Positions 1,446-12,696 of a stretch of 64,000 nt of DNA are shown piece by piece. Positions within the stretch are counted from its first letter, which is position 1. The number at the start of each line of letters is the position of its first letter. The notes beneath the pieces are model-generated. The model was not told where the DNA came from. It saw nothing but the letters and a program-made list of their open reading frames with translations, and did not search any database. The position numbers were made by a program, and so were the translations under genes. Origin of the DNA: an uncultured delta proteobacterium (GTDB taxonomy: Bacteria > Desulfobacterota > Desulfomonilia > UBA1062); assembly GCA_963798485.1 (NCBI GenBank), contig CAWCTR010000007.1, positions 384,001-448,000 on the forward strand, read 5' to 3'.

Positions 1446-1718
1446 GCCTCTGTTTCTGTCTGTAGTAACATATAATATTCCAAGCATGTCCATGAACTGG
1501 CTTCCCTGCTGATGATGTAGCAATCCACATATCACAATATTGCCTTGCCCAAACATGCGTATAACTAGTTTTCATACCGTCAAGCGGTGATGAACAGGAT
1601 GGAATAAATAATACTGAGTTTATTCGTAATATTAGAGATAATCCCAGTATCAATCCACCGATGTCTTCCTTATGGCTCATGCTCTTGAGCGTAGATTGAA
1701 ATATGGTGCCGATGTGCG
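1446..1718. repeat. ~270-bp diverged direct repeat, copy 1 (copy 2 at 11846-12117)
   Basis: Aligns by eye from GCCTCTGTTTCTGTC to TATGGTGCCGAT; both copies lie about 100 bp before an att core. Confidence 0.9.
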
Positions 1719-1755
1719 CTTAATGTGAACACCATTATTTTGAATCATCCAATCT

Positions 1756-1841
1756 TGCGGAGTAGCGCAACGGTAGCACCCTACCTGCAAAGCATGGCTG
1801 TGACTTATTGGTCGAGGGTTCAAATCCCTCCTCCGCTACCA
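1756..1841 (+). tRNA. tRNA-like / pseudo-tRNA containing the att core
   Basis: Acceptor stem GCGGAG/CTCCGC, perfect T-arm GAGGG-TTCAAAT-CCCTC, encoded CCA, D-arm-like TAGCGCAACGGTAGC. The anticodon stem around CTGCAAA pairs poorly. 86 nt. Confidence 0.55.
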
Positions 1842-1842
1842 T

Positions 1843-1900
1843 TAACTTATTGATATTATTAATGGTTAGTATTTGTTTTGGCTCCCCGTGTCTTCCCCGT
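1843..1900. promoter_or_regulatory. att arm: IHF site plus paired integrase arm-type sites
   Basis: TAACTTATTGATA (1843-1855) matches the IHF consensus YAANNNNTTGATW. TCCCCGT occurs twice 11 bp apart (1883, 1894); the same pair recurs at 12151 and 12162. Confidence 0.7.
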
Positions 1901-3022
1901 AATCGGTATTACATTCCGTTCAAGCAGTTCACGCTTCTTCGCAATACTTGCCCTTGCATAAGCCTCCGTTGAAGAGTAGCTAGCCCAATCTCCGGCCACC
2001 TGGAGATCACTCCTTGACATCCCTTCCTCGTTGTACATTTGTGAAGCCCTGCTGGTCTTGGTGCCACGATATACATCTATGTTTTCACCAGCCTTCTCAC
2101 AGGCCTCTTTCCATATCTTTCTATATTGCCTCTCTGTGTACCGTTTACCCTCAAGCCTTGATTCGGCGCATGTGAAGAAGTAAGGCCCGAATGATTTTGG
2201 CATGGAGTCCATATATGGCTTGAACTCAGAGTGACAGGGTATCACATGGATATCACCTGTCTTGGTTCGATCAACCACCTTGCTATCACTTACCCCTCTG
2301 CGTATGATGAATGCGTCTTGAGCTTGGTCATAGTCAATCTTCTGTAATGCCATGGCTTCACCCGGTCGTCTGAGGTGCAGATATAACCACATGAAGAAGG
2401 GTTTGTGCTCTGTGGGGATCTCCTTTATCACGGCGTAGTATCTATCACTTGGCAGCCATTCGATAGGCTTTTGTCTGATATCGTATAGACTCTTTTCAGG
2501 GAAAGGCGGAACAGCAAGAATACGCTCAGACTTCCATGCATACCTGAGGCAGCATCGAAGCGTATCGACTACGTTCTTTTTGTTATTCCCTGATCCTGGC
2601 ACCCAGTTGAGAAGCTTAACGAGGGTATCATATCGAATCTCATGAAGCATGATAGGGTTCTCCTTGAAGAATGGAATCAGGTGAACATTGACAGCAGTCT
2701 TATACTTCTTGTAACCACCAGGGGTCAACGTAGGCCGTCTATCCTCAAGCCACTGCTCCATATATGGGATGATGTCAGCAAGGTGTTCACCGAGATACTT
2801 CTCGATGCGTAGGATTCCCCGCTCTTCATCTCCCTGTATAAGGGCAAGGAGCTTCTCGGCCTTCTTGTAACCTATATCGCTCTTCTTGTCTGGGTGCCTC
2901 TGGTACATTGGATCTGATTCCCCAAGATATTTCGATATCTTATACACTCTGCCCTGCTGAGACCAGTTGACAATCCAGTATGGTATCCGCACATCCTTCC
3001 GAAGCGTAATAGAGCCCTTCAT
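1859..3022 (-). CDS. Tyrosine recombinase / phage-type integrase
   Basis: LRRPGEAMAL (R-I), TKT (K) and C-terminal STEAYA (Y). ATG at 3022 follows a GGAGGG RBS (the ORF track starts at 3133). Points toward the att site. Confidence 0.9.
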   Translation of the reverse strand: MKGSITLRKDVRIPYWIVNWSQQGRVYKISKYLGESDPMYQRHPDKKSDIGYKKAEKLLALIQGDEERGILRIEKYLGEHLADIIPYMEQWLEDRRPTLTPGGYKKYKTAVNVHLIPFFKENPIMLHEIRYDTLVKLLNWVPGSGNNKKNVVDTLRCCLRYAWKSERILAVPPFPEKSLYDIRQKPIEWLPSDRYYAVIKEIPTEHKPFFMWLYLHLRRPGEAMALQKIDYDQAQDAFIIRRGVSDSKVVDRTKTGDIHVIPCHSEFKPYMDSMPKSFGPYFFTCAESRLEGKRYTERQYRKIWKEACEKAGENIDVYRGTKTSRASQMYNEEGMSRSDLQVAGDWASYSSTEAYARASIAKKRELLERNVIPITGKTRGAKTNTNH

Positions 3023-3272
3023 GCATACCCCTCCCTCGAATTTATGTGAGGGAAGGGTATACTCTGTCTGGGAAAACATCAATGCTTGTGCAGCATCGAT
3101 GCTCCCAGATCTGCATGTGGACTCAGTCTGCAAAGTTAGTAATACCTCCGTCTATGGCAGCAGGGGGCTGCGCTGGGTGAAGTTTCCGTTTCAACTCGAA
3201 TCAGTGCTTCATCGATTTCCATCAAGGAATGATGGAACTTTAAGAACTACTTGAAATTATAAGGTGAATCTC

Positions 3273-3823
3273 ATAACCTATTGGAATATAATGATTTATA
3301 TGCGTTCCCAACAAAATCCTAACAAGTTCCCAACAAATCCTAACAGACCCAACAAATCCTAACATTGTCGTATTAAACATCATAATACATTGGATTCAAT
3401 ATAACTTAGTGCGTTCCGAACAAAATCCGAACACGTTCCGAACAAATCCGAGCAATCCGAACATTTCCGAACATTCCCATCATGGTTACGGGATGAAACA
3501 CTTAACTATATGAAATATAATACCTTTCTGTCACTCTCAACAAAGTCTCAACAAACTTTCAACAACTCTCAACACTCTCAACAACTTTCAACAATCCCAT
3601 CATGGTTACAGGATTAACCCACTTAACCTATTGGAATATATTGATTATATGTGTTCTGAACAAAATGTGAACACGTTCTGAACAAATCCAAACAATGTGA
3701 ACAAATCCAAACAATCCCATCAAGGATACCGGATGATTCCACTAAACCGATGGAAATATAATGTCTTTCTGAGCAACCTCACAGATTCCTCACAAATTCT
3801 GACAAACCTCACAGATCCTCACA
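3273..3823. repeat. Higher-order array: five ~120-bp modules of IHF-like header plus phased octamers
   Basis: Octamer runs start at 3306, 3415, 3535, 3655 and 3776. Spacing is 11-11-10-9-10 in modules 1-4 and 11-10-9-10 in module 5. The CCCATCA linker recurs at exactly 120-bp intervals (3476, 3596, 3716). Confidence 0.95.
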
Positions 3824-3984
3824 TTGTCATAAGTATGACCCTCACGCTCTCCCCTGCTGGTGACAAAGCCAGTAGTAGAGCGGGCCGCAACAAGACGGCC
3901 CGAAAGTATATAGAGTCTATTGCAGCAGTGGGTGGGGAAGTGTAGTGTCTCTGTGTAGCATTTCGGTACTAATCATTCCTGATG

Positions 3985-4025
3985 ACCTACATAATATAAT
4001 TTTTAAATCATTATTTTATGTAGGT
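3985..4025. other. AT-rich inverted repeat
   Basis: ACCTACATAATATAAT / ATTATTTTATGTAGGT: 16-bp arms, one mismatch, 9-nt loop, just downstream of the wHTH gene. Confidence 0.7.
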
Positions 4026-4037
4026 GCTCAATATTGA

Positions 4038-4406
4038 TTACCTATACTCTTTCCAGCTATCGACAAGCCTGTATGTTGCCAATGTATTCCTCTTTTTTCC
4101 CATTACTCCTTTTCGTGCTCTCCGTAGGAAGCCTTTTTCAATCAGATCTGCAATATGCCTAGTGAACGAGGCGCTGCTTATCCCCAACCCTTTCGCTCTT
4201 GCAGCAGGGAAGGGATAAGGCCCCTCGTCATAGACAGGCTTTCCTTCTGAGTCAGCCGTAAATGTCCTCCAGTGAAGGAATTCCATAAGCACATACCGGG
4301 CATCCCCACTAAGAGCCCTGAACGCCCTTGAATGGAACATATCCCTTTCTATGAAGAGGCGAGGAGCTTTGCCCTTCCATTCGTCAGCAATGTCTATCAG
4401 TTTCAT
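4038..4406 (-). CDS. Small winged-HTH protein, replication-initiator-like
   Basis: AFRALSGDARYVL...AKGLGISSASFTRHIADLIEKGFL...TYRL pattern; ATG at 4406 after AAGGAG. Confidence 0.65.
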   Translation of the reverse strand: MKLIDIADEWKGKAPRLFIERDMFHSRAFRALSGDARYVLMEFLHWRTFTADSEGKPVYDEGPYPFPAARAKGLGISSASFTRHIADLIEKGFLRRARKGVMGKKRNTLATYRLVDSWKEYR

Positions 4407-4500
4407 ACTCCTTGCCTCTCTCTCCCTGCTGTCGTAGTAGCCCCGTGGCCTAGTATTCCAGAGCTGCTCCAACTAAGTTTGTATTCTCCATAGCCCTGAC

Positions 4501-4882
4501 ATACACCTCGGCAAGCAATATTCACAAGGGCGATATTACATGATGGCAAATATACTGATAAAAAAGGGGCTCCGATGATAGTCGTCACTCCTTCTACACG
4601 CTCCTCCACTAGCAAGCATGTATCGCTGGTAAGCACGAGTCTTGCGGTACTTGACGACTTTTTTCATGTATGACCCCCTTTCTGGCCTAAACATACACCT
4701 TGGCAATCAATATCATAAGCACAAAAAGACTATAATGGAAAATAATTTGCAATGGTGTTGCCATGATCGCCGTGACCTCCTTTTTGGCTTAACCATACAT
4801 CTTGGCAAAGAAAGTTGTGAACACAAAGTGATCACTGTTGAAAATGTATTTTACTCTCTAGCCTGACAATACACCTTGGAAA
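4501..4882. repeat. Dispersed 14-bp motif ATACACCTTGGCAA (candidate operators)
   Basis: Copies at 4501, 4535 (variant), 4693, 4795 and 4869; an inverted pair at 5478-5508 lies upstream of the XRE gene. Confidence 0.65.
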
Positions 4883-4966
4883 TTAAATTGGTTCGTGCAA
4901 ACTGATACAGTATTAATTTCCTTGCTGTATTTCGAGTTAATGGTTGGTGAGCTCTGGCTTGTCCGG

Positions 4967-5365
4967 CTACTTCTCCAAGCTTGCAAGAATGCCTTGTAAT
5001 ACAGGTGTCAGGTTATAACCACGCTTAAGGATTTGGTCGATCAGTTCATTAACCTTCGTGTTGGAGAGAACCCTTGCAACCCTCCAGAATCCCTTTTCCC
5101 TCGGATCATCATAGCCCTGTCCGTCATAGATGTCAGTTGCTGTTATGACACCACCTTCAATAAAGCTTATGAGGTAATAAGCCGTTAAAGGCTTCCTGTA
5201 CTTGGATGTCTGAGCATTCTTCGATAACAGATCTGATAACCTGGAGTTGGGGAACCCCAGCTTAATCGATAGTTCCAACTGGTTCATATTGTTCTTATGC
5301 AGATAGTCACGAACCAGAATGCCAAACTTCTCTTGTAATCTTGATAGATTAACCTTGTTCAACAT
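4967..5365 (-). CDS. XRE/Cro-like HTH transcriptional regulator
   Basis: MNQLELSIKLGFPNSRLSDLL HTH; GGAGG RBS. Confidence 0.7.
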   Translation of the reverse strand: MLNKVNLSRLQEKFGILVRDYLHKNNMNQLELSIKLGFPNSRLSDLLSKNAQTSKYRKPLTAYYLISFIEGGVITATDIYDGQGYDDPREKGFWRVARVLSNTKVNELIDQILKRGYNLTPVLQGILASLEK

Positions 5366-5736
5366 AGCGACCTCCGGTGTAAGTATGATCTATATGAAGA
5401 GCTGCAAGCAGTCAATGCATGAGATTGCCACTGTGTAAATATGATCATATTTGGAGGTCGTGGAGAGTAGGTATAGTTTGCCATGATGTAATCCATCAAC
5501 CTTGGCAAAGAATCCTCACCACCGAGCTATTACGAGCCTGGAATAGGCCTGTGATTTGTGGAGGTCTTGCATATAGATCACCATTTATTTTATGTGCAAA
5601 GCTGATCACGTATCATAGGTATCTATTATTTCTTCAATGGAAGTGCATTATTTTGAATGCCTAATTGATTTTTATACGGTAAGATATCATCATTGTATCT
5701 TTTTGACAGCTGGTGGCTACTTTCAAGGGGGGCAAG

Positions 5737-6258
5737 ATGAAGCATCCACTAACCCTTATTGTCGGTTGCGCTTTTCTCTTTTTTGTTGCTGGCTGCGCTA
5801 CGCCATACCAACCCGTTGGTCTCGGAGGAGGGTATTCCGAAACGCAGCTAGCTCCTGATGTTTTTCGTGTCAACGTGAGGGGCAATGGATACACCTCAAA
5901 CGAACGTGCACAAGACTTCGCTCTTCTACGGGCAGCTGAACTGACCTTGCAGCATGGATTCAAGTATTTTGCCATAATCGATGAATCTTCATCCACCGAT
6001 GTCAGTACATATTCGACACCAGGCTCATCCCAGACCACTGGATCTTCCACCGGCACAGCAAATGTGTATGGAAACTATGGAACCTACCAAGGCACTTACT
6101 CAGGAACTACCACTTACAATCCACCTCAGACCTACAATATCCACAAGCCACGAAGCTCTATCTCTGTCCGATGCTTTGCTGACAAACCAGACTCAACTTA
6201 CACTTTTGACGCAGTATTCTTGCAACAATCAATAAGTCAGAAATATGGAATCAAGTAA
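5737..6258 (+). CDS. Lipoprotein (CC0125/CC1285-like)
   Basis: Lipobox VAGC, then ATPYQP...GGYSE...RGNGYT...ALLRAAELTL. Confidence 0.75.
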   Translation: MKHPLTLIVGCAFLFFVAGCATPYQPVGLGGGYSETQLAPDVFRVNVRGNGYTSNERAQDFALLRAAELTLQHGFKYFAIIDESSSTDVSTYSTPGSSQTTGSSTGTANVYGNYGTYQGTYSGTTTYNPPQTYNIHKPRSSISVRCFADKPDSTYTFDAVFLQQSISQKYGIK

Positions 6259-6341
6259 CTGGCTTTCAGTCGATAACGTGTCACAGCAAATGTTTTGCAT
6301 ATACTGAAGGTTATGAGAGAAGATCTCTATGGGCTACGTGA

Positions 6342-6962
6342 TTAATTGCTTGAGTCCAATGCCTTGGCATTTCTCTTCGCCCTGACAAGCGTTGACACAC
6401 TCAGACCAGTCTCTAAGGCAACATCATTGTAGCTCTTCCCCTGCTGGAGTAGGGCAAGACCATTCCCCACCTTGTCAGCTTCTCTCCTTGGTCTTCCACC
6501 AATTCTTCCCTTTGCCCTTGCATTGGCAAGCCCTGACTTGACACGCTCACGAATAAGCTCAAGCTCGAACTCAGCTATCAAGGATAGCATTCCTGCCATC
6601 ATTCTCCCTGCTGGTGTGGTCATGTCTACTTGACCAGGTGCCACGAAAGCTACTCCCAGGTGTTTCAATTCATCAACTGTATTCACAAGGTCTTTAGTAG
6701 ATCGACTCCACCTATCCAAGGATAAGACCAGGATAGCATCAATCTCCCTCTTGCGTGCCATGTTGAGGATCTTCTCACGTTCTGGTTTCTTCTCTGCTGC
6801 ACCACTTATCTTTTCCTCGAACTCTATGACTATCTCCCAGCCTCTTGCCTCTGCATGTGCTCGAAGGTCTTTGAGTTGTCTATCCACTGATTGATCCTTT
6901 GTCGATACCCTGGTGTAAATCGCCACTCGCTCCACTTTCCCTACTTTCTTGGGCATGGTCAA
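6342..6962 (-). CDS. Serine recombinase (resolvase/invertase family)
   Basis: YTRVST catalytic motif, LDRWSRS, GRIGGRP and a C-terminal HTH. Confidence 0.93.
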   Translation of the reverse strand: MTMPKKVGKVERVAIYTRVSTKDQSVDRQLKDLRAHAEARGWEIVIEFEEKISGAAEKKPEREKILNMARKREIDAILVLSLDRWSRSTKDLVNTVDELKHLGVAFVAPGQVDMTTPAGRMMAGMLSLIAEFELELIRERVKSGLANARAKGRIGGRPRREADKVGNGLALLQQGKSYNDVALETGLSVSTLVRAKRNAKALDSSN

Positions 6963-6964
6963 AA

Positions 6965-7110
6965 ACCTCCTTAAAATGATGTCTGGAAATCAAGCACTGA
7001 TGCAGAGGGTATCACACAAATCACTGATGGTCAAATACAATTGATTATGACCAATCAAGGAGACAGCCCCAGCAGGGTATCAAGAAGACTGATTGTATTG
7101 AAATGATATA
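6965..7110. promoter_or_regulatory. Probable res site
   Basis: Imperfect palindromes upstream of the resolvase, e.g. TGGTCA (7028) ... TGACCA (7048), plus repeated GGGTATCA and ACTGAT half-sites. Confidence 0.5.
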
Positions 7111-7270
7111 GGTCGATAGAGCGATGACAACAATCGGGATGATGTCCTTGGTAGGGCTGATACAACTAAGGCTTACCACCGAGCGGCTACGAGCTGGGAA
7201 TTGTGATGCAAGGACTGGGAAGATACCATTGCCAAGAAGGAAGGATTGTACAGACAGAATGAATTCCTTG

Positions 7271-7397
7271 GATTCCTGGCCCTTAGTTTGACCCCCCCTG
7301 GCACCCCCTGGCAGAAAAGGCCCACCCCATAGAGTCTCCTTCTATGTATCCCTATGTGCTTGTGTGCCTGTCTGGAGGTAACCCCAATATTTTCCAA
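7271..7397. repeat. ~130-bp diverged direct repeat, copy A (copy B at 9812-9944)
   Basis: Shared GATTCCT..TTGACCCCCCC..TAGAGWCTCCTTYTATGTATCCCTATG..GCCTGTCTG..TTTCCAA. Confidence 0.85.
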
Positions 7398-7453
7398 AAT
7401 CTAATCGCATTAAAAAAGCAGGGACTGAGATTTACCGTGCTTTTACAAGCTTA

Positions 7454-8239
7454 TTAACAGCAATGATATTTATTGAGCTTCTTCCTGAATCCAATAAGCC
7501 CGAGCAACCCTGACCCGAAGAGACGTATGCTTGCCGGTATCGGGGTAGCTGTTGCCTCGGCGACTGTGCTGCCGTTGGCATAGAGGGTGAGAATGGCGGA
7601 GTAAGGGGTGCCGTTTGCACCCGGTGCAACCGTGGCAATATTGAAATGGTAGAGGTACATGGTCACGGAAGCGCCAGTATCGAGGGCTGCAAGGTTGGCC
7701 TCGCCAATCTGACTGACCCTATTCAATCCTCCAAAAGCGCCGGGAGCAGTTCCATTCTGATCCATTTTCGCCCTGTATGAATCTGAGTTGCCTGGGTCTG
7801 CATCTACGATCTGGTTTGTGACCCCATTGAGGTTTGTGCGGTAGTAGGTGTTGGCAACAAAGTTATAAGCATTACTAAAGGCAATCAAGAAAGTATTATT
7901 GATTGACGGCCTTACATTCTGCGTGGTTGCAAAATATTCTTGATGGGGAGTAGAACCACTACTACCGCTGTAGGCAAAGAACCCAACACTCAGATTCGAC
8001 CAGCTGGATGCCTGGAGTGCGCTGAGATTGATGCTGTTCGCCCCGGCAAGAGTCAATGGGTTACTACTGAGTGTGTCAAGTCCTAAGGTGGTTAGATCGC
8101 CGAGATCAATAGCACGTTCTGCCGTAGTTCCATTGTACACTACCTCTATAAGATGGTTGTTCTCGAAATAGGCAAATGCCTGAGAGGAAATGGCTGTCAT
8201 GAGCACGATGGTTGGCACTATTATAAATAATAATTTCAT
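7454..8239 (-). CDS. VPLPA/PEP-CTERM-type surface protein
   Basis: Signal peptide from MKLLF (GGAGG RBS), low-complexity body, C-terminal TPIPASIRLFGSGLLGLIGFRKK. Confidence 0.85.
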   Translation of the reverse strand: MKLLFIIVPTIVLMTAISSQAFAYFENNHLIEVVYNGTTAERAIDLGDLTTLGLDTLSSNPLTLAGANSINLSALQASSWSNLSVGFFAYSGSSGSTPHQEYFATTQNVRPSINNTFLIAFSNAYNFVANTYYRTNLNGVTNQIVDADPGNSDSYRAKMDQNGTAPGAFGGLNRVSQIGEANLAALDTGASVTMYLYHFNIATVAPGANGTPYSAILTLYANGSTVAEATATPIPASIRLFGSGLLGLIGFRKKLNKYHCC

Positions 8240-8274
8240 ATTGTTAACCTCCATGGACACCCTTTGTTGTGATG

Positions 8275-8940
8275 TCAGATGCTTCTCTTCTTCCTGGTTG
8301 CTGCCAATCCTGCCAAACCGGAACCGAATAATAGGAAGGTTGCTGGCAGTGGTGTAGTCACAGGCGTGCGAGTCCAAGTGCCTGTGCCGAAAGAGGCAGC
8401 TAAAGTTATAAACTGTGGATTTTGAGGTGTACCACTTAAATACCAAACATCGTCACATATACTACCGGGATACTGATCGGTTTGGATATAATAGTAGCCA
8501 TGTAGTGTGGAAGATGAAGCGCTAGAGGTATAGAGATCAGTATACCACTCCGTTGGAAGACCTGATGAACCCACAGCCATTACACGAAGTGCAAGATCTT
8601 GAAATGCCGACCCAGATGGTATGACAAGGGCACCAGAAGATAGGGTATATTGGGTCGTTAGTAAAAAGCCCCCGTAGGCTTGAGGATCAGATGCGCCTGG
8701 CTCAGCAGCTGCTGCTGCCAGTGCGGCTGGTGTACATATGAATTGTAGCGTCATATGATCACCGATGATAGGAGTGGATGGGAATGAGGGGCCTGTGAAA
8801 TAAGTGAAATTAGCGCTAGTGTATGTGTAAAGATACTCTTGGTCGGCGTGGACTGAAAAGGGTACCATCAACATCAGGATGAGAAGCGGTAGAGTCATGG
8901 GTTTGAATGTGTGGATACGTTGGGCTTTGGGTAAGTTCAT
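8275..8940 (-). CDS. VPLPA/PEP-CTERM-type surface protein
   Basis: Signal peptide ending VHA; C-terminal TPLPATFLLFGSGLAGLAATRKKR; GAGGAG RBS before 8940. Confidence 0.85.
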   Translation of the reverse strand: MNLPKAQRIHTFKPMTLPLLILMLMVPFSVHADQEYLYTYTSANFTYFTGPSFPSTPIIGDHMTLQFICTPAALAAAAAEPGASDPQAYGGFLLTTQYTLSSGALVIPSGSAFQDLALRVMAVGSSGLPTEWYTDLYTSSASSSTLHGYYYIQTDQYPGSICDDVWYLSGTPQNPQFITLAASFGTGTWTRTPVTTPLPATFLLFGSGLAGLAATRKKRSI

Positions 8941-9500
8941 AAATAATCTCCTCACAAAAGATTTACCGTTCTTATTGCCACGGGACATGCTTCACCCGCA
9001 TTGCACTCTAAGTCTTATATCTTGTGAGGGCTTTCTGGTTCTTCGGTTAACTACTGTTTGTCCCTAGGAAAGGATCACTTGTAAGCCAGCAAAGTACCCT
9101 TAACGGATACTATTAACATGGTTCTGTTAATATCGTATGAATGAATTGTTAAGTCTTGGTGAATGTATGAGAATGTTTGAGGGGTTATTTAGTGTTAGCT
9201 ACAACTCGATCTTACAAATAGAGAACTGACACTGAAGATGCTCTACGGGATTACCTAAAGAAGCACGAACCTCATTCCAAAAAGTAACCTTCATGAAATA
9301 AGGTCTTAGGGCTTCGTGATTAACGAGATGGTATGCCTTGGCAGTGTTGAGGTCTTGAAGGCTCATCAGAGAGCTGTAACGAGCTCGGAATGCAACTCCT
9401 AACCCATATATAGATTGTATGCAGCACCAAGGAAGCATATTGCTTTTTAAAAAGATATGGTGTCTTGTTATCTGAGATACTTCCAGCAAGGCACACTATA

Positions 9501-9803
9501 ATGTTTGGTAAAAATGATTACAAAGACATAGCTGACAAAGATCAAACGGAGAAGCCTGTAAGGTTAAAAGGCTCTTTTACTTGTTACAAATGTGGGCAGA
9601 GATATGACAATAAGTTTAAGAATCGACATGAAGTCCAAACGGGATGGAGTATTGGTCGAAGCTTAAGATTATATCGTCACCCTGTTAGCCTATGTCTTAC
9701 CTGTTATAAGAAGCAGATTAAGCAGGAGCGAGTCGTGAGCTTGATTATAGTTGCTGTTATAGCCTCTTTGGCCTTTGCTGCTTTACATTACCATTGGTTT
9801 TAA
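9501..9803 (+). CDS. Hypothetical protein with two CxxC motifs and a C-terminal TM helix
   Basis: CYKC...CLTC and a hydrophobic tail; start uncertain. Confidence 0.5.
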   Translation: MFGKNDYKDIADKDQTEKPVRLKGSFTCYKCGQRYDNKFKNRHEVQTGWSIGRSLRLYRHPVSLCLTCYKKQIKQERVVSLIIVAVIASLAFAALHYHWF

Positions 9804-9811
9804 AAAAGACT

Positions 9812-9944
9812 GATTCCTAGCACTCAGATTGACCCCCCCCCCCGGTATACCCGCTGTAGAAAGGGTGGTATAGGTAGAGACTCCTTTTATGTATCCCTAT
9901 GCACACGCTCGCCTGTCTGAGATCAATCCAAATAAAATTTCCAA
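9812..9944. repeat. ~130-bp diverged direct repeat, copy B
   Basis: Aligns with 7271-7397. Confidence 0.85.
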
Positions 9945-9999
9945 CCCATATTAAATAAACAACTCCAGTCCTAGCTCTACGACCAACCAACATTCAAAC

Positions 10000-10362
10000 T
10001 TATTTATCTTCAAACCTGACGGCTATCCCATAAACTTCGGTGGTTTGGTAACAAAAGATATTATAAATCGGGATGAACCCATACATACTATTGGTTACGG
10101 TGACATTAATCAAAGCGTCTCCTCCCTTTTTTGCAAGGGCATCATTCACTGCGGTTGAGAATGTTCCATCTCCCCATGGGATTATTGCTAAGAGGAAGAA
10201 CCGACTAGACTCGCCTTGCACTGCACCCAACTCCTTGTAGGATTTACCATTTCTCAAGAGTGCACCAGGATCACCCATACTCCTGGCAACTATACCAAGT
10301 GTTCCTGTAGACGAACAACCAAACAATAACACTGCCACTAATAGTACAACAATTTTTTTCAT
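10000..10362 (-). CDS. Small lipoprotein (TRL-like)
   Basis: Lipobox LFGC; ALAKKGGDALINV...VYGIAV pattern; GAGGAG RBS. Confidence 0.7.
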   Translation of the reverse strand: MKKIVVLLVAVLLFGCSSTGTLGIVARSMGDPGALLRNGKSYKELGAVQGESSRFFLLAIIPWGDGTFSTAVNDALAKKGGDALINVTVTNSMYGFIPIYNIFCYQTTEVYGIAVRFEDK

Positions 10363-10510
10363 ATTATCTCCTCAAATTTAATGTAATAAATTCAGGCGTT
10401 ATTCCAACATGTTATATTTCTACAACTTTAGTGTCTTAGAGGAAACCACAAATGAAATATTGTCATGACAGTGGGATATAATATCATATTATTCTTAAAA
10501 AATATACTAT

Positions 10511-11805
10511 GGATCTGTAAATTAATTACATGCTCAATTTACCTTTGCAGGTATAATTGAGTAGTTCCACTCACCATGGAATTCATCACGCGAAATGCGT
10601 ATCGCGGCAAATTCTTCGTTAGTCACCCGGATGCCTTTCGGATAAGGTTTTGAGTCGAGTTCTGCTCGCACTTTCAATCCTTTTCGTGTGGTGGTTGACG
10701 CAATCAGATTCACTATTACTTCATGACTAACTAATGGCTGCCCACGCCAATTCATGCTAATATGCGAAAACAATCGATGTTCAATTTTATTCCATTTGCT
10801 TGTTCCCGGTGGGAAGTGACTGACACGGATAGGAATACCAAGCTCATCGGACAACAACTGCAACTCAAGTTTCCATAGCCGAACCCGAGAACCATTGCTG
10901 CCACCACCATCCGCTGTGATTATCAACTCTTTGGCATTGGGATAGAGCGGTCTCCCCATTGAAAACCACCATCGGCGAATTGTGGACACGGCAAAGCTTG
11001 CCGTGTCATGATCCGTACCTACGCTAACCCAGCCAGTATTGTTTGCCAGATCATAGACACCATATGGGTTGGCGCGGCCCAGATCTTTATCAACAAAGTC
11101 ATATACATTAACTTGTTCTGGTTCTCCCTGTGGCCGCCATTCCTTTCCTCCGTTCTTAAACTGACCAACGAGTTCTTTCTTCTTGGTGTCAACCGAAATT
11201 ACCGGTTGCCCTTTACGCAACGCTTCTTCTGTCCGGGTGTTTATATATTTAAACTGCGCATCGCGGTCGGGATGGCTAGACCCTTCCATGGTTTTGCGGT
11301 TTCCTTGCAGGCTATATCCAAGCTTTTTAAGTAGTCCTCCTATAGACGTGTGGCTAACAATATACCCCTCCACGCCCAACTCAGTTTCCAGCTGCCTCAG
11401 GCTCTTGCAGGTCCAGCGTAAGGGTGATTCTGGATCTCCCAGGGTTACCGGCTCTACCAAGCTCTCCAATGCTGTCAGCAATTTCGCGTCGCCTTTAACA
11501 GAAGCTTTTCTCCCGGCGCCTACTCGGCGTATTCGCCGCGAACTGCTTCCCAGTTCCTCAGGCCTTTGAGCAAGATCTTTTAACCCTTGCTGAATCGAGC
11601 CACGCGCCACCCCTGTTGCTTTCCATACAAGCGTTATGCCGCCATGACCAACTACTTTTGCCTCGGATGCGGCTACCAAACGCCTCAATCGTTCATCTAA
11701 CGCCCATTCAATACTCTGATAGCGCTCTTTGATTGCTGACTCATTATCCATGCATTAAATCTAACACACAGTGTTAATATAGTCATGTTATTTATTTACA
11801 GTTCC
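10511..11805 (-). mobile_element. ISAzo13-family insertion sequence
   Basis: 22-bp imperfect TIRs GGATCTGTAAATTAATTACATG / (rc) GGAACTGTAAATAAATAACATG; 3-bp TAT target duplication (10508-10510, 11806-11808). Confidence 0.9.
10534..11751 (-). CDS. ISAzo13-family DDE transposase
   Basis: GDPESPLRWT, ISVDTKKKE, ADGGGSN, PPGTSKWNKIEHRLF, HGEWNY. Confidence 0.93.
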   Translation of the reverse strand: MDNESAIKERYQSIEWALDERLRRLVAASEAKVVGHGGITLVWKATGVARGSIQQGLKDLAQRPEELGSSSRRIRRVGAGRKASVKGDAKLLTALESLVEPVTLGDPESPLRWTCKSLRQLETELGVEGYIVSHTSIGGLLKKLGYSLQGNRKTMEGSSHPDRDAQFKYINTRTEEALRKGQPVISVDTKKKELVGQFKNGGKEWRPQGEPEQVNVYDFVDKDLGRANPYGVYDLANNTGWVSVGTDHDTASFAVSTIRRWWFSMGRPLYPNAKELIITADGGGSNGSRVRLWKLELQLLSDELGIPIRVSHFPPGTSKWNKIEHRLFSHISMNWRGQPLVSHEVIVNLIASTTTRKGLKVRAELDSKPYPKGIRVTNEEFAAIRISRDEFHGEWNYSIIPAKVN

Positions 11806-11845
11806 TATGCCTGATCTGATTATTGATCTAACGATCATAGATTAT

Positions 11846-12117
11846 GCCTCTGTTTCTGTCCGTAGTAACATATAATATATCAAGCATGCCCTTGAACCGG
11901 CTCCCCTGCTGATAATGTAGCAATTCACGTATCACAACATTGCCTTGCTCAAAACATGCGTAGAACTAGTCTTCATGCCGTCAAGCGGTGATGAATTAGA
12001 TGGAATTATCAATACTGAGTTTATTCAAAATATTCAAGATAACCCCAGTATGCACACCCAAGTCATTCACATGGCTCATGCTCTTGAGCGTAGATCCAGA
12101 TATGGTGCCGATCTGCG
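11846..12117. repeat. ~270-bp diverged direct repeat, copy 2
   Basis: Aligns with 1446-1718. Confidence 0.9.
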
Positions 12118-12150
12118 TAGAAGGGGGTCACTATCGCAATACATTCACCT

Positions 12151-12231
12151 TCCCCGTATCTTCCCCGTAGTGCCTGGAGAGCTAGGCTAGGGCAGTAACT
12201 GTGGAGTATTCAAATCCCTCCTCCGCTACCA
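12151..12231 (+). other. attR: arm-type pair plus 23-bp core
   Basis: TCCCCGT twice (12151, 12162), then the tRNA 3' fragment at 12209-12231. Confidence 0.85.
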
Positions 12232-12300
12232 AGATATAAAAACTTAAATGAATTATTAATGACAAGCAAGTGTGCATGGCACTGAAGCTTCTCATTAATT

Positions 12301-12696
12301 TTATTTATTATGAAAAAACTTTCGAAATGTTGCAATACCCATCATGCCGCTTCCGACAAGAAGCATTGTAGCTGGTTCAGGAACAGGTGATGGATGGGTC
12401 GTTGGCCGATCAGGATTGAAATTGCAAGAGACATTGATACTCACCGGGTTGGATGGTGGCTGAGGTAAATTGCATTTAAGAATATCGGGGCAGGGGCTCG
12501 TGATGGCGCTTCTGCTTAGCAAGCATGTATCATTAGAAATAATGTTCAATAATATACTTGAATTTGAATAGATTGTATTGAAAAAGAATAACGGTATGTT
12601 GGAGTCTGTGTTAGGCATATTACTTATTGGAAGTGCATAAGCTGTTAGCGGTATAAACAGAAAAAGTAATGCTACTAATGTTCTTTTTATAGCCAT
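12301..12696 (-). CDS. PEP-CTERM sorting-domain protein
   Basis: Signal peptide; VPEPATMLLVGSGMMGIATFRK. Confidence 0.9.
   Translation of the reverse strand: MAIKRTLVALLFLFIPLTAYALPISNMPNTDSNIPLFFFNTIYSNSSILLNIISNDTCLLSRSAITSPCPDILKCNLPQPPSNPVSINVSCNFNPDRPTTHPSPVPEPATMLLVGSGMMGIATFRKFFHNK

Follow-up and report, generated by a model that had tools for sequence, protein, structure and literature searches.

In a 64,000-nucleotide stretch of a contig from an uncultured delta proteobacterium (this whole stretch is hereafter called the window), a genomic island of about 10.4 kb at a tRNA-Cys gene carries, at positions 3273-3823, an array of five tandem modules of about 120 bp, each composed of an AT-rich header followed by plus-strand octamers repeated in phase with the DNA helix. 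Very probably, in our view, a sequence-specific protein reads the array as duplex DNA and is aligned along one face of the helix. We further propose, giving the idea about an even chance, that the array and a nearby winged-helix gene (4038-4406, minus strand) together form a replication module, whose octamers would be the iterons of an origin, of a copy-control locus, or of both.

Five modules of phased octamers

The layout given for the array in a preliminary description, made from the sequence alone, was confirmed. The six octamers of modules 1 to 4 (M1-M4) follow one another at start-to-start distances of 11-11-10-9-10 and the five of module 5 (M5) at 11-10-9-10, and the mean spacing of 10.2 bp places these short direct repeats in phase with the helix, as in iterons. 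M1 (3273-3382) has its header at 3273-3305 and its octamers at 3306-3364 (starts 3306, 3317, 3328, 3338, 3347 and 3357), where TCCCAACA and TCCTAACA alternate and the fifth site is ACCCAACA. M2 (3383-3504) comprises a header, six TCCGAACA octamers at 3415-3473 (starts 3415-3466), the fourth of which reads TCCGAGCA, and a tail with a short inverted repeat. M3 (3505-3624) and M4 (3625-3744) likewise run from header to octamers to tail; the six octamers of M3 (3535-3593, starts 3535-3586) are spelled TCTCAACA or TTTCAACA, and those of M4 (3655-3713, starts 3655-3706) comprise two each of TCTGAACA, TGTGAACA and TCCAAACA. M5 (3745-3823) has a header and, at 3776-3823 (starts 3776-3816), octamers reading ACCTCACA, TCCTCACA and, once, TTCTGACA. 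All five modules are given on the plus strand, and a TATAAT-like hexamer lies on that strand in every header. The GC content, in 100-bp windows, is 0.30-0.41 over the array and 0.47-0.53 in its flanks, with an AT-rich stretch of about 30 bp per module. Tandem Repeats Finder reported a 120-bp period over 3412-3762 (2.9 copies, 68% matches); sub-periods of 19-22 bp and about 30 bp are present within modules, and the tails between modules are degenerate copies of a hairpin region in the integrase leader that adjoins the array. Metagenome contigs from small shares of three DNA runs were identical to 3397-3547 and covered no other part of the array.

The octamers of one module are more alike than those of different modules, the mean Hamming distance being 0.93 within and 2.31 between modules, and this within-module uniformity was reached by none of 20000 position-preserving shuffles. 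To this extent the earlier claim that each module has a different octamer stands. The difference is nevertheless smaller than the heading of that claim suggested, since the 29 octamers share the consensus T-C-Y-N-A-A-C-A, with positions 7 and 8 invariant and position 6 invariant or nearly so, and since two modules are internally mixed (two spellings in M1, three in M4). Position 4 is the main discriminator among modules, and the differences lie mostly at positions 3-5. The spacers between octamers are partly conserved from module to module, and we therefore regard the modules as positional homologues in which the variable triplet has changed in concert. Because turnover of repeat units would scramble the irregular spacing, we read this pattern as selection on octamer spelling: a fixed spacing and fixed positions 1-2 and 6-8, combined with a per-module spelling at positions 3-5, point to selection for module-specific recognition.

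The array is also all but unique among the sequences that we searched. A scan of the 4.3 Mb genome for chains of at least five copies of a 7-mer (at most 1 mismatch, steps of 9-11) returned 13 rows, all of them within M1-M3 or within a single module on another contig of the same genome, C14, which excludes chance as the source of the array. The interpretation of the array as replication-type iterons, already offered in the preliminary description, is supported in that phased direct octamers follow AT-rich headers in a geometry found in 4.3 Mb only here and on C14. The exact six-site geometry pattern had no match in the genome contig set and none in the viral contig set; when up to 3 mismatches were allowed, a search of 401 phylum genomes yielded only this genome and one 3-mismatch match that is not octamer-like, the reversed-pattern control giving 3. 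In none of the geometry searches (genome and viral contigs, the 401 phylum genomes and 52 genomes of the order) did a relative with several modules appear, and no cluster of M3, M4 or M5 octamers was found elsewhere in this genome. A weak phased cluster on contig C8 was dropped, as it lies at the 3' end of an 843-amino-acid open reading frame (ORF) and is probably coding low-complexity sequence.

Could the array be a functionless relic of tandem duplication, made uniform by slippage or conversion? The 120-bp period would fit unequal crossing-over, and the sub-periods within modules and the failure of our searches to yield a multi-module relative accord with such an origin. We nonetheless hold it very improbable. 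As the preliminary description had argued, simple slippage would not preserve an irregular spacing while changing all sites together, and the 11-11-10-9-10 series is retained in M1-M4 and in the C14 module together with partly conserved spacers; moreover, core positions 6-8 are invariant or nearly so over 29 sites, and a third context, described below, has the TCCGAACA set with 3 differences. A second possibility, that the modules are RNA genes of about 120 nt, for example protein sponges with repeated motifs, could draw on the TATAAT-like hexamers and on one tail hairpin that has G-U wobble pairing on the plus strand only, one pair of which is changed on both sides between the copies on contigs C7 and C14. 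This we regard as extremely improbable: Rfam, searched over 1500-5500 at E<=1, matched only the tRNA, no terminator-like site was found, the octamer runs contain almost no G and cannot form a fold, M3 has no minus-strand GGA motif, and helical-turn spacing is meaningful for duplex DNA but not for RNA. Our tests of the ALTERNATIVES covered arm-type sites, an operator for a recombination directionality factor (RDF), RNA and integration host factor (IHF).

The winged-helix gene and the replication reading

Comparison with two further islands of the same genome reveals what varies together with the octamers. The C14 island, at a tRNA-Val gene, has the order leader, one module of six TCCGAACA octamers, tail, IS21-family element, winged-helix gene and 132-amino-acid gene, and its octamer spacing is the same as that of M1-M4. 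Between the window and C14 the leader is identical at 207/219 positions and the 132-residue protein at 124/132, with 5/48 fourfold sites different, while the integrases are only 32% and the winged-helix proteins 46% identical, the headers agree at 20/28 positions and the octamers differ. Thus a diverged block of winged-helix gene and octamers lies in a backbone that is 87-95% identical. We stress that, judged against the neutral yardstick of 5/48 fourfold sites, the 12/219 differences in the leader represent only a modest excess of conservation. M2 bears the octamer of C14 and is 88-90% identical to the C14 module over about 66 bp. The third island lies 5 kb upstream of the window, where it sits at a tRNA-Met gene; it encodes a winged-helix protein of 33% identity, and behind the gene of this protein come four phased sites (TACCAAC/TCCCAAC, spacing 11-11-10) that resemble M1. 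In all three islands of the genome the octamers are therefore co-inherited with a winged-helix gene. A 524-nt metagenome contig (run X1, record 6) matches 3413-3473 with 3 differences and has flanks unlike those of any of the three islands, so that the TCCGAACA set is known in at least three contexts; these comparisons of octamer-type modules span one genome and one short metagenome contig. A DNA search with the leader among the 52 order genomes returned this genome and one 54-bp match in genome G036.

The IS21-family element of C14 (istA/istB) lies between the module and its winged-helix gene (locus L007, 5816-8055 and 2052-2132). Another IS21-family element stands beside a fourth island of this genome, on contig C22 (L094, element at 9980-12442, island at 4447-9408), which encodes an integrase, a superfamily 2 (SF2) helicase and a Prim-Pol/DUF3987 protein; both elements have tandem 22-23-bp terminal repeats.

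The 122-residue winged-helix protein appears, from its sequence relatives, to be a short form of a replication-initiator-like family. Relatives occur in 9 of the 122 genomes of the class, this genome included, and a profile built from 12 sequences collected 2283 cluster representatives at E<=1e-3. Of the 12 family members, ten match phrog_186 ('DnaD-like helicase loader') when the threshold is E<=0.1, and there are also matches of members to replication initiation families; at the stricter E<=1e-3, phrog_186 is matched by 36 of 86 members, the remaining families matched being five replication-initiation PHROGs and one unnamed family, and none of the 86 matches an excisionase or regulator PHROG. 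Pfam HTH_36 and MarR_2 are each matched by 5 of the 12 members, and RepA_N by one of the 12 (E 0.14). In a protein atlas a long-form member adjoins a cluster named for the lambda O N-terminal domain. The AlphaFold2 model (predicted local distance difference test score 82) found as its best Foldseek matches RepA_N-type plasmid initiator DNA-binding domains, followed by MarR folds; matches 4pql, 4pt7, 5kbj and 4pta had E-values of 1.3e-3 to 3e-2 at a template modelling score of about 0.5, and no Cox or Xis structure was among the Foldseek matches listed. Other searches were less informative: profiles run against the sequences of PDB chains gave nothing below E 0.09, the winged-helix alignment had no match in viral contigs, word-index searches (1 and 18 matches) returned no Pfam domain and only names such as 'predicted transcriptional regulator' or hypothetical, and none of 10 cluster representatives looked up had an informative name. 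An hhalign comparison with the Prim-Pol protein of genome G010, discussed below, aligned the recognition helix and wing to its residues 310-355 at E 0.053 and a probability of 1%, which is not significant.

More distant members of the family occupy a related arrangement. At 10 loci in related genomes a homologous AT-rich header comes after the winged-helix gene, and island-specific repeats of 17-20 bp with conserved spacings of about 105, 44-46 and 23 come after the header; downstream lies either an excisionase-like HTH_17 gene or an SF2 helicase, with an integrase beyond it. The proteins of loci L017, L018 and L023 are 60-62% identical and their repeats have a common core, an agreement that may reflect descent alone, since these loci are linked.

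From these observations we infer that the winged-helix protein and its paralogues are most likely the readers of the octamers. The preliminary description had named the adjacent winged-helix protein as a possible binder, and the family's matches, confined at E<=1e-3 to replication-initiator and loader PHROGs with the one unnamed exception, make it a plausible one. We suggest that each module would present an AT-rich stretch of about 30 bp and six octamers one helical turn apart, a spacing that would place all bound protein on the same face of the helix; that the octamers would be bound by the winged-helix protein and its paralogues, short forms of a family that would be akin to the domain with which phage and plasmid initiators bind their origins; that binding would start or limit replication of the island; and that the modules would have different readers.

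Several observations weigh against a replication module. Among the 12 island ORFs scanned against Pfam there is no helicase or primase domain, in agreement with the earlier statement that the island encodes no primase-helicase. The AT-rich header is short for an unwinding element, and the array lies directly upstream of the integrase leader, which is also where an operator would be placed; six direct repeats one turn apart are, besides, a hallmark of Cox/Apl/Xis-type binding. The window's 122-residue protein itself matches no replication family at E<=0.1 and no Pfam family above threshold, with MarR-type hints only (E about 0.007), and neither the short-form nor the long-form model had a Foldseek match at E<=0.001, the long-form matches being the weaker. 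All three paralogues of this genome are without the C-terminal extension of about 60 residues that longer relatives possess and that would be expected to recruit the replisome. No relative was found by tblastn of the winged-helix protein against plasmid and phage collections. Finally, one tolerant protein could read all the modules through the shared T-C...A-A-C-A. Such a single reader might suffice in view of the shared core and the mixed M1 and M4, while the concerted spelling and the matches of M2 and M1 to other islands argue for five readers.

Within the replication reading we can go one step further, tentatively. The modules might each serve as cognate iterons for a separate initiator variant circulating in the lineage, two of these variants being encoded by the other two islands of this genome; we think this possible but doubtful. 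Cross-talk with those islands is possible on the evidence of spelling, as M2 and M1 resemble their octamers. Normally an initiator and its iterons define a single private replicon, and it is the specificity of such pairs that governs incompatibility and the relations between satellite and helper. Were the modules indeed such a panel, a mobile element would be keeping a library of the origin codes of other elements, and any relative that happened to be active could replicate or switch the island; or else the initiators of rivals could be soaked up and shut down, with incompatibility used as a weapon. Five variant site sets on one small island, two of them resembling those of co-resident islands, make cross-talk or competition between integrated elements directly testable. 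The lineage also offers a compact natural series for the co-evolution of winged-helix recognition with its DNA code, in which the geometry stays constant while one to two letters change and in which replication modules, whether Prim-Pol or winged-helix, would be exchangeable. The winged-helix family is large (the 2283 cluster representatives), and its matches carry no curated Pfam or NCBI name.

The position of the array suggests the main rival reading, in which it is a Cox/Apl-like operator: the winged-helix protein would polymerise head to tail and switch an integrase promoter in each header, so that the five modules would be five tandem, separately controlled promoters. The geometry fits Cox and Apl very well. 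According to one study (PMC7498355), RDF-type proteins use direct repeats 10-11 bp apart, five at the attachment (att) site of phage 186 and seven at pR-pL; another (PMC3936717) describes at least six copies of Cox-boxes 10-11 bases apart and has Cox act on P4 as well. The array, on the minus strand, is immediately upstream of the conserved, structured integrase leader, the inter-module tails are degenerate copies of the leader's hairpin region, and in the distant relatives header and repeats stand upstream of an excisionase-like HTH_17 gene and the integrase. We nevertheless judge an operator rather unlikely. Neither an octamer nor a phased octamer-like run was found at 1650-2250 or 11800-12400, the att ends, where an RDF should bind; the lack of excisionase or regulator PHROG matches among the 86 family members (E<=1e-3) tells against such a protein; promoter-like hexamer pairs numbered 5, as against 3.7 +/- 2.0 in shuffles; no minus-strand -10 element is conserved among the headers; and equivalent octamer clusters lie within the Prim-Pol coding sequence of related elements. 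An operator would in any case be compatible with the replication reading, since initiators often repress nearby promoters.

Prim-Pol genes and the surrounding island

The Prim-Pol clusters came to light in a search of the 52 order genomes for six ACA triplets (at most 1 mismatch), which gave one extra match, within a 561-residue Prim-Pol + PriCT_1 gene of genome G010. Prim-Pol relatives are present in 24 of the 122 class genomes, and at 7 of the 10 close loci (E<=1e-77) at least four phased octamers occupy an equivalent place between the two domains (L097, contig C12 of G010, 2089-2124; equivalents in L098, L099, L100, L103, L120 and L101). The other three close loci are contig C17 of G036, where the cluster was recognised by eye, one with a doubtful chain of three sites, and a contig fragment without a cluster; none of the more distant loci has a chain of four exact 6-mers. 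The spacings (10-9-10, 10-10-9 or 9-9-10) are not multiples of three, so the octamers are not amino-acid repeats. Their spelling is specific to the element: CGCAACA at four loci (two of these, in G044 and G045, are nearly identical and cannot count as independent), GTCGTCA, RTCACA and GGCNACA. About 260 bp further downstream comes a second cluster, which in G048 has about six sites, spaced roughly 11-11-10-10-10. Judged by sequence, these clusters look like internal origins overlying coding sequence; an internal origin inside a gene is a known arrangement, and the intragenic place makes an operator unlikely for them. On contig C17 of G036 (L034/L125, about 2540-2590) an AT-rich stretch and four repeats 10 bp apart interrupt the Prim-Pol gene at exactly this place, leaving two ORFs, and the integrase there is 93% identical (402/433) to that of the third island, which has its winged-helix gene and four phased sites in the corresponding position. 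From the similar integrases and the different cargo we conclude that the winged-helix and octamer block occupies the position that a primase-helicase has in a close relative.

The preliminary description had raised the idea that the array serves several helpers, its octamers being read by the primase-helicases of other elements, either to replicate the island in trans (hitch-hiking) or as decoys. Related Prim-Pol/PriCT genes do have 4-6 phased octamers of similar spacing and related style, TCGCAACA in G010 is one letter off M1 and M3 spellings, and RRTCACA on contig C27 of G036 is close to M5; the scanned ORFs of the island include no primase or helicase, and a Prim-Pol/DUF3987 island is present on C22. 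However, none of the modules has an exact match to a Prim-Pol octamer, no octamer cluster is present at the Prim-Pol locus on C22, the M3, M4 and M5 octamers cluster nowhere else in the genome, and the octamers are co-inherited with the winged-helix gene in all three islands. Reading by foreign primase-helicases is thus improbable in our view, although the broader notion of several partners gains from the identity of the M2 octamer with that of C14 and from the resemblance of M1 to the third island's sites.

The island itself extends from about 1819 to 12231. The tRNA-Cys(GCA) gene (1756-1841, plus strand; ARAGORN; Rfam tRNA, 34.6 bits) contributes its last 23 bases (1819-1841) as the attL core, and an exact-word search located the 23-bp direct repeat of this tRNA 3' end as attR at 12209-12231 (plus strand). 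The tRNA gene is 86 nt long, with a stretch from anticodon to T-arm that is unusually long for a Cys tRNA, and its Rfam score is just the 34.6 bits mentioned. A tyrosine integrase is encoded at 1859-3022 on the minus strand (Pfam Phage_integrase 3e-09 with SAM-like domains; phrog_1 integrase 9.7e-22); translation probably starts at the ATG at 3022, the frame stays open up to 3133, and an N-terminal extension is present. Three exact copies of TTCCCCGTA, all on the plus strand and the only ones in the 64 kb, flank the att core on both sides (1893-1901 in the P' arm; 12150-12158 and 12161-12169 in the P arm) and are probably, by their placement, the arm-type sites of this integrase. The preliminary description had considered whether the octamers themselves could be decoy or regulatory arm-type sites, for which one might cite the N-terminal extension and the fact that the sister islands differ in both integrase (32% identity) and octamer. 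We rejected this explanation, whose probability we put close to negligible: TTCCCCGTA, at 1893, 12150 and 12161, brackets the core and fills that role on both arms, whereas the array lies 1.5-2 kb from the core and no octamer is found near either att end. The headers had also been likened to IHF sites, but no header contains an exact match to the IHF consensus. The perfect IHF site reported at 1843 does match that consensus exactly (1843-1855, beside the att core, the only match near the array), and the three matches in the window equal the 2.75 expected by chance. A centromere-like function, likewise mentioned earlier, finds no support, as no partition gene is present among the ORFs scanned.

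Read on the minus strand from 5365 to 1859, the order is 132-amino-acid helix-turn-helix (HTH) gene, repeat spacer, winged-helix gene, tail, array, leader and integrase. The integrase leader (3023-3272, minus strand) spans the roughly 250 nt from the array to the integrase start and is predicted to form a structured 5' untranslated region: the segment 3030-3300, folded as minus-strand RNA only, gave z = -5.4 against 200 shuffles, and its last predicted hairpin pairs the purine-rich ribosome-binding site. A palindrome within the leader is changed in both halves between the C7 and C14 copies. On the other side of the array, a conserved tail (3824-3940, plus strand) has two adjacent hairpins and the motif GTCTATTGCAGCAGTGGG, with 96/113 positions identical to C14. 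A motif of about 18 bp, GTCTATKGCAGCAGKGGG, flanks the array as a direct repeat (a near-copy at 3152-3169 on the left, 3917-3934 on the right), and at the right end, as well as twice in the third island (L008, about 6797-6817 and 6981-6995), it is preceded by a GGGCCG...CGGCCC hairpin; within this genome, hairpin and motif together are confined to the three islands. The hairpin pattern of the tail had 46 matches in metagenome contigs. Their contigs have a GC of 0.52-0.75, and neither the flanking motif nor phased repeats accompany any of the matches, so that we ascribe them all to chance. Beyond the winged-helix gene, in the spacer of about 560 bp that separates it from the 132-amino-acid gene, four direct repeats of about 33 nt (4486-4886, plus strand) may be operators. 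The 132-residue HTH protein (4967-5365, minus strand), a product of the backbone, is repressor-like (phrog_1468 transcriptional repressor, 2.3e-06) and had no match in a search of the genome contig set. The remaining genes of the island encode a resolvase, PEP-CTERM proteins, a DUF6567 protein and an ISAzo13-type transposase.

Comparison with known systems

The satellite phage P4, to which the preliminary description had likened the array, has an ori/crr octamer bound by the alpha primase-helicase and repeats of about 120 bp. Both systems consist of clustered octamer iterons with a repeat unit of about 120 bp, and the analogy gains from the phased, element-specific octamer clusters of the related Prim-Pol genes. 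It fails in that the 12 ORFs scanned include no primase-helicase that could bind the octamers as the element's own product; the candidate reader is instead a free-standing winged-helix protein of 122 residues, and the five modules differ in spelling where P4 presumably has one. Control loci of plasmids offer a second parallel: P1 incA and F incC are extra iteron clusters downstream of the initiator gene that titrate or handcuff the initiator and cause incompatibility. In those loci, however, it is the plasmid's own iteron that is repeated, whereas the clusters of the array are not alike and two of them are similar to sites in other islands. With lambda O and its origin, and with DnaD-like loaders, the winged-helix family shares its matches to 'replication initiation O-like' and 'DnaD-like helicase loader' PHROGs, and in the longer relatives the repeats straddle the 3' end of the gene. 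The lambda ori sites are 19-bp inverted repeats, in contrast to the direct 8-mers of the array, and the short form of the protein is without the C-terminal part that binds a partner.

The operators of Cox (P2), Apl (186) and Xis are similar in having five to seven direct repeats 10-11 bp apart beside integrase genes, and they are read by a small polymerising winged-helix protein, the candidate reader here being a small winged-helix protein too. They differ in that the island has no matching sites at att, that the proteins belong to a different family, and that none of those systems is known to have tandem variant sets of sites. The PLE satellites of Vibrio cholerae offer a further parallel. 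As described in two reports (PMC7145576, PMC8263062), the PLE initiator, a RepA of the RepA_N fold, has no helicase or primase of its own, and its DNA-binding domain covaries with the origin, the two being exchanged between conserved backbones. PLE have three semi-palindromic iterons of about 30 bp and of one type, unlike the direct octamers in five variant sets described here. As in PLE, however, the winged-helix gene and the octamers form a diverged block in a backbone that is 87-95% identical, and the contrast between the block on C14 and its conserved surroundings matches the swapping of a DNA-binding domain together with its origin, as outlined in one of these reports (PMC8263062).

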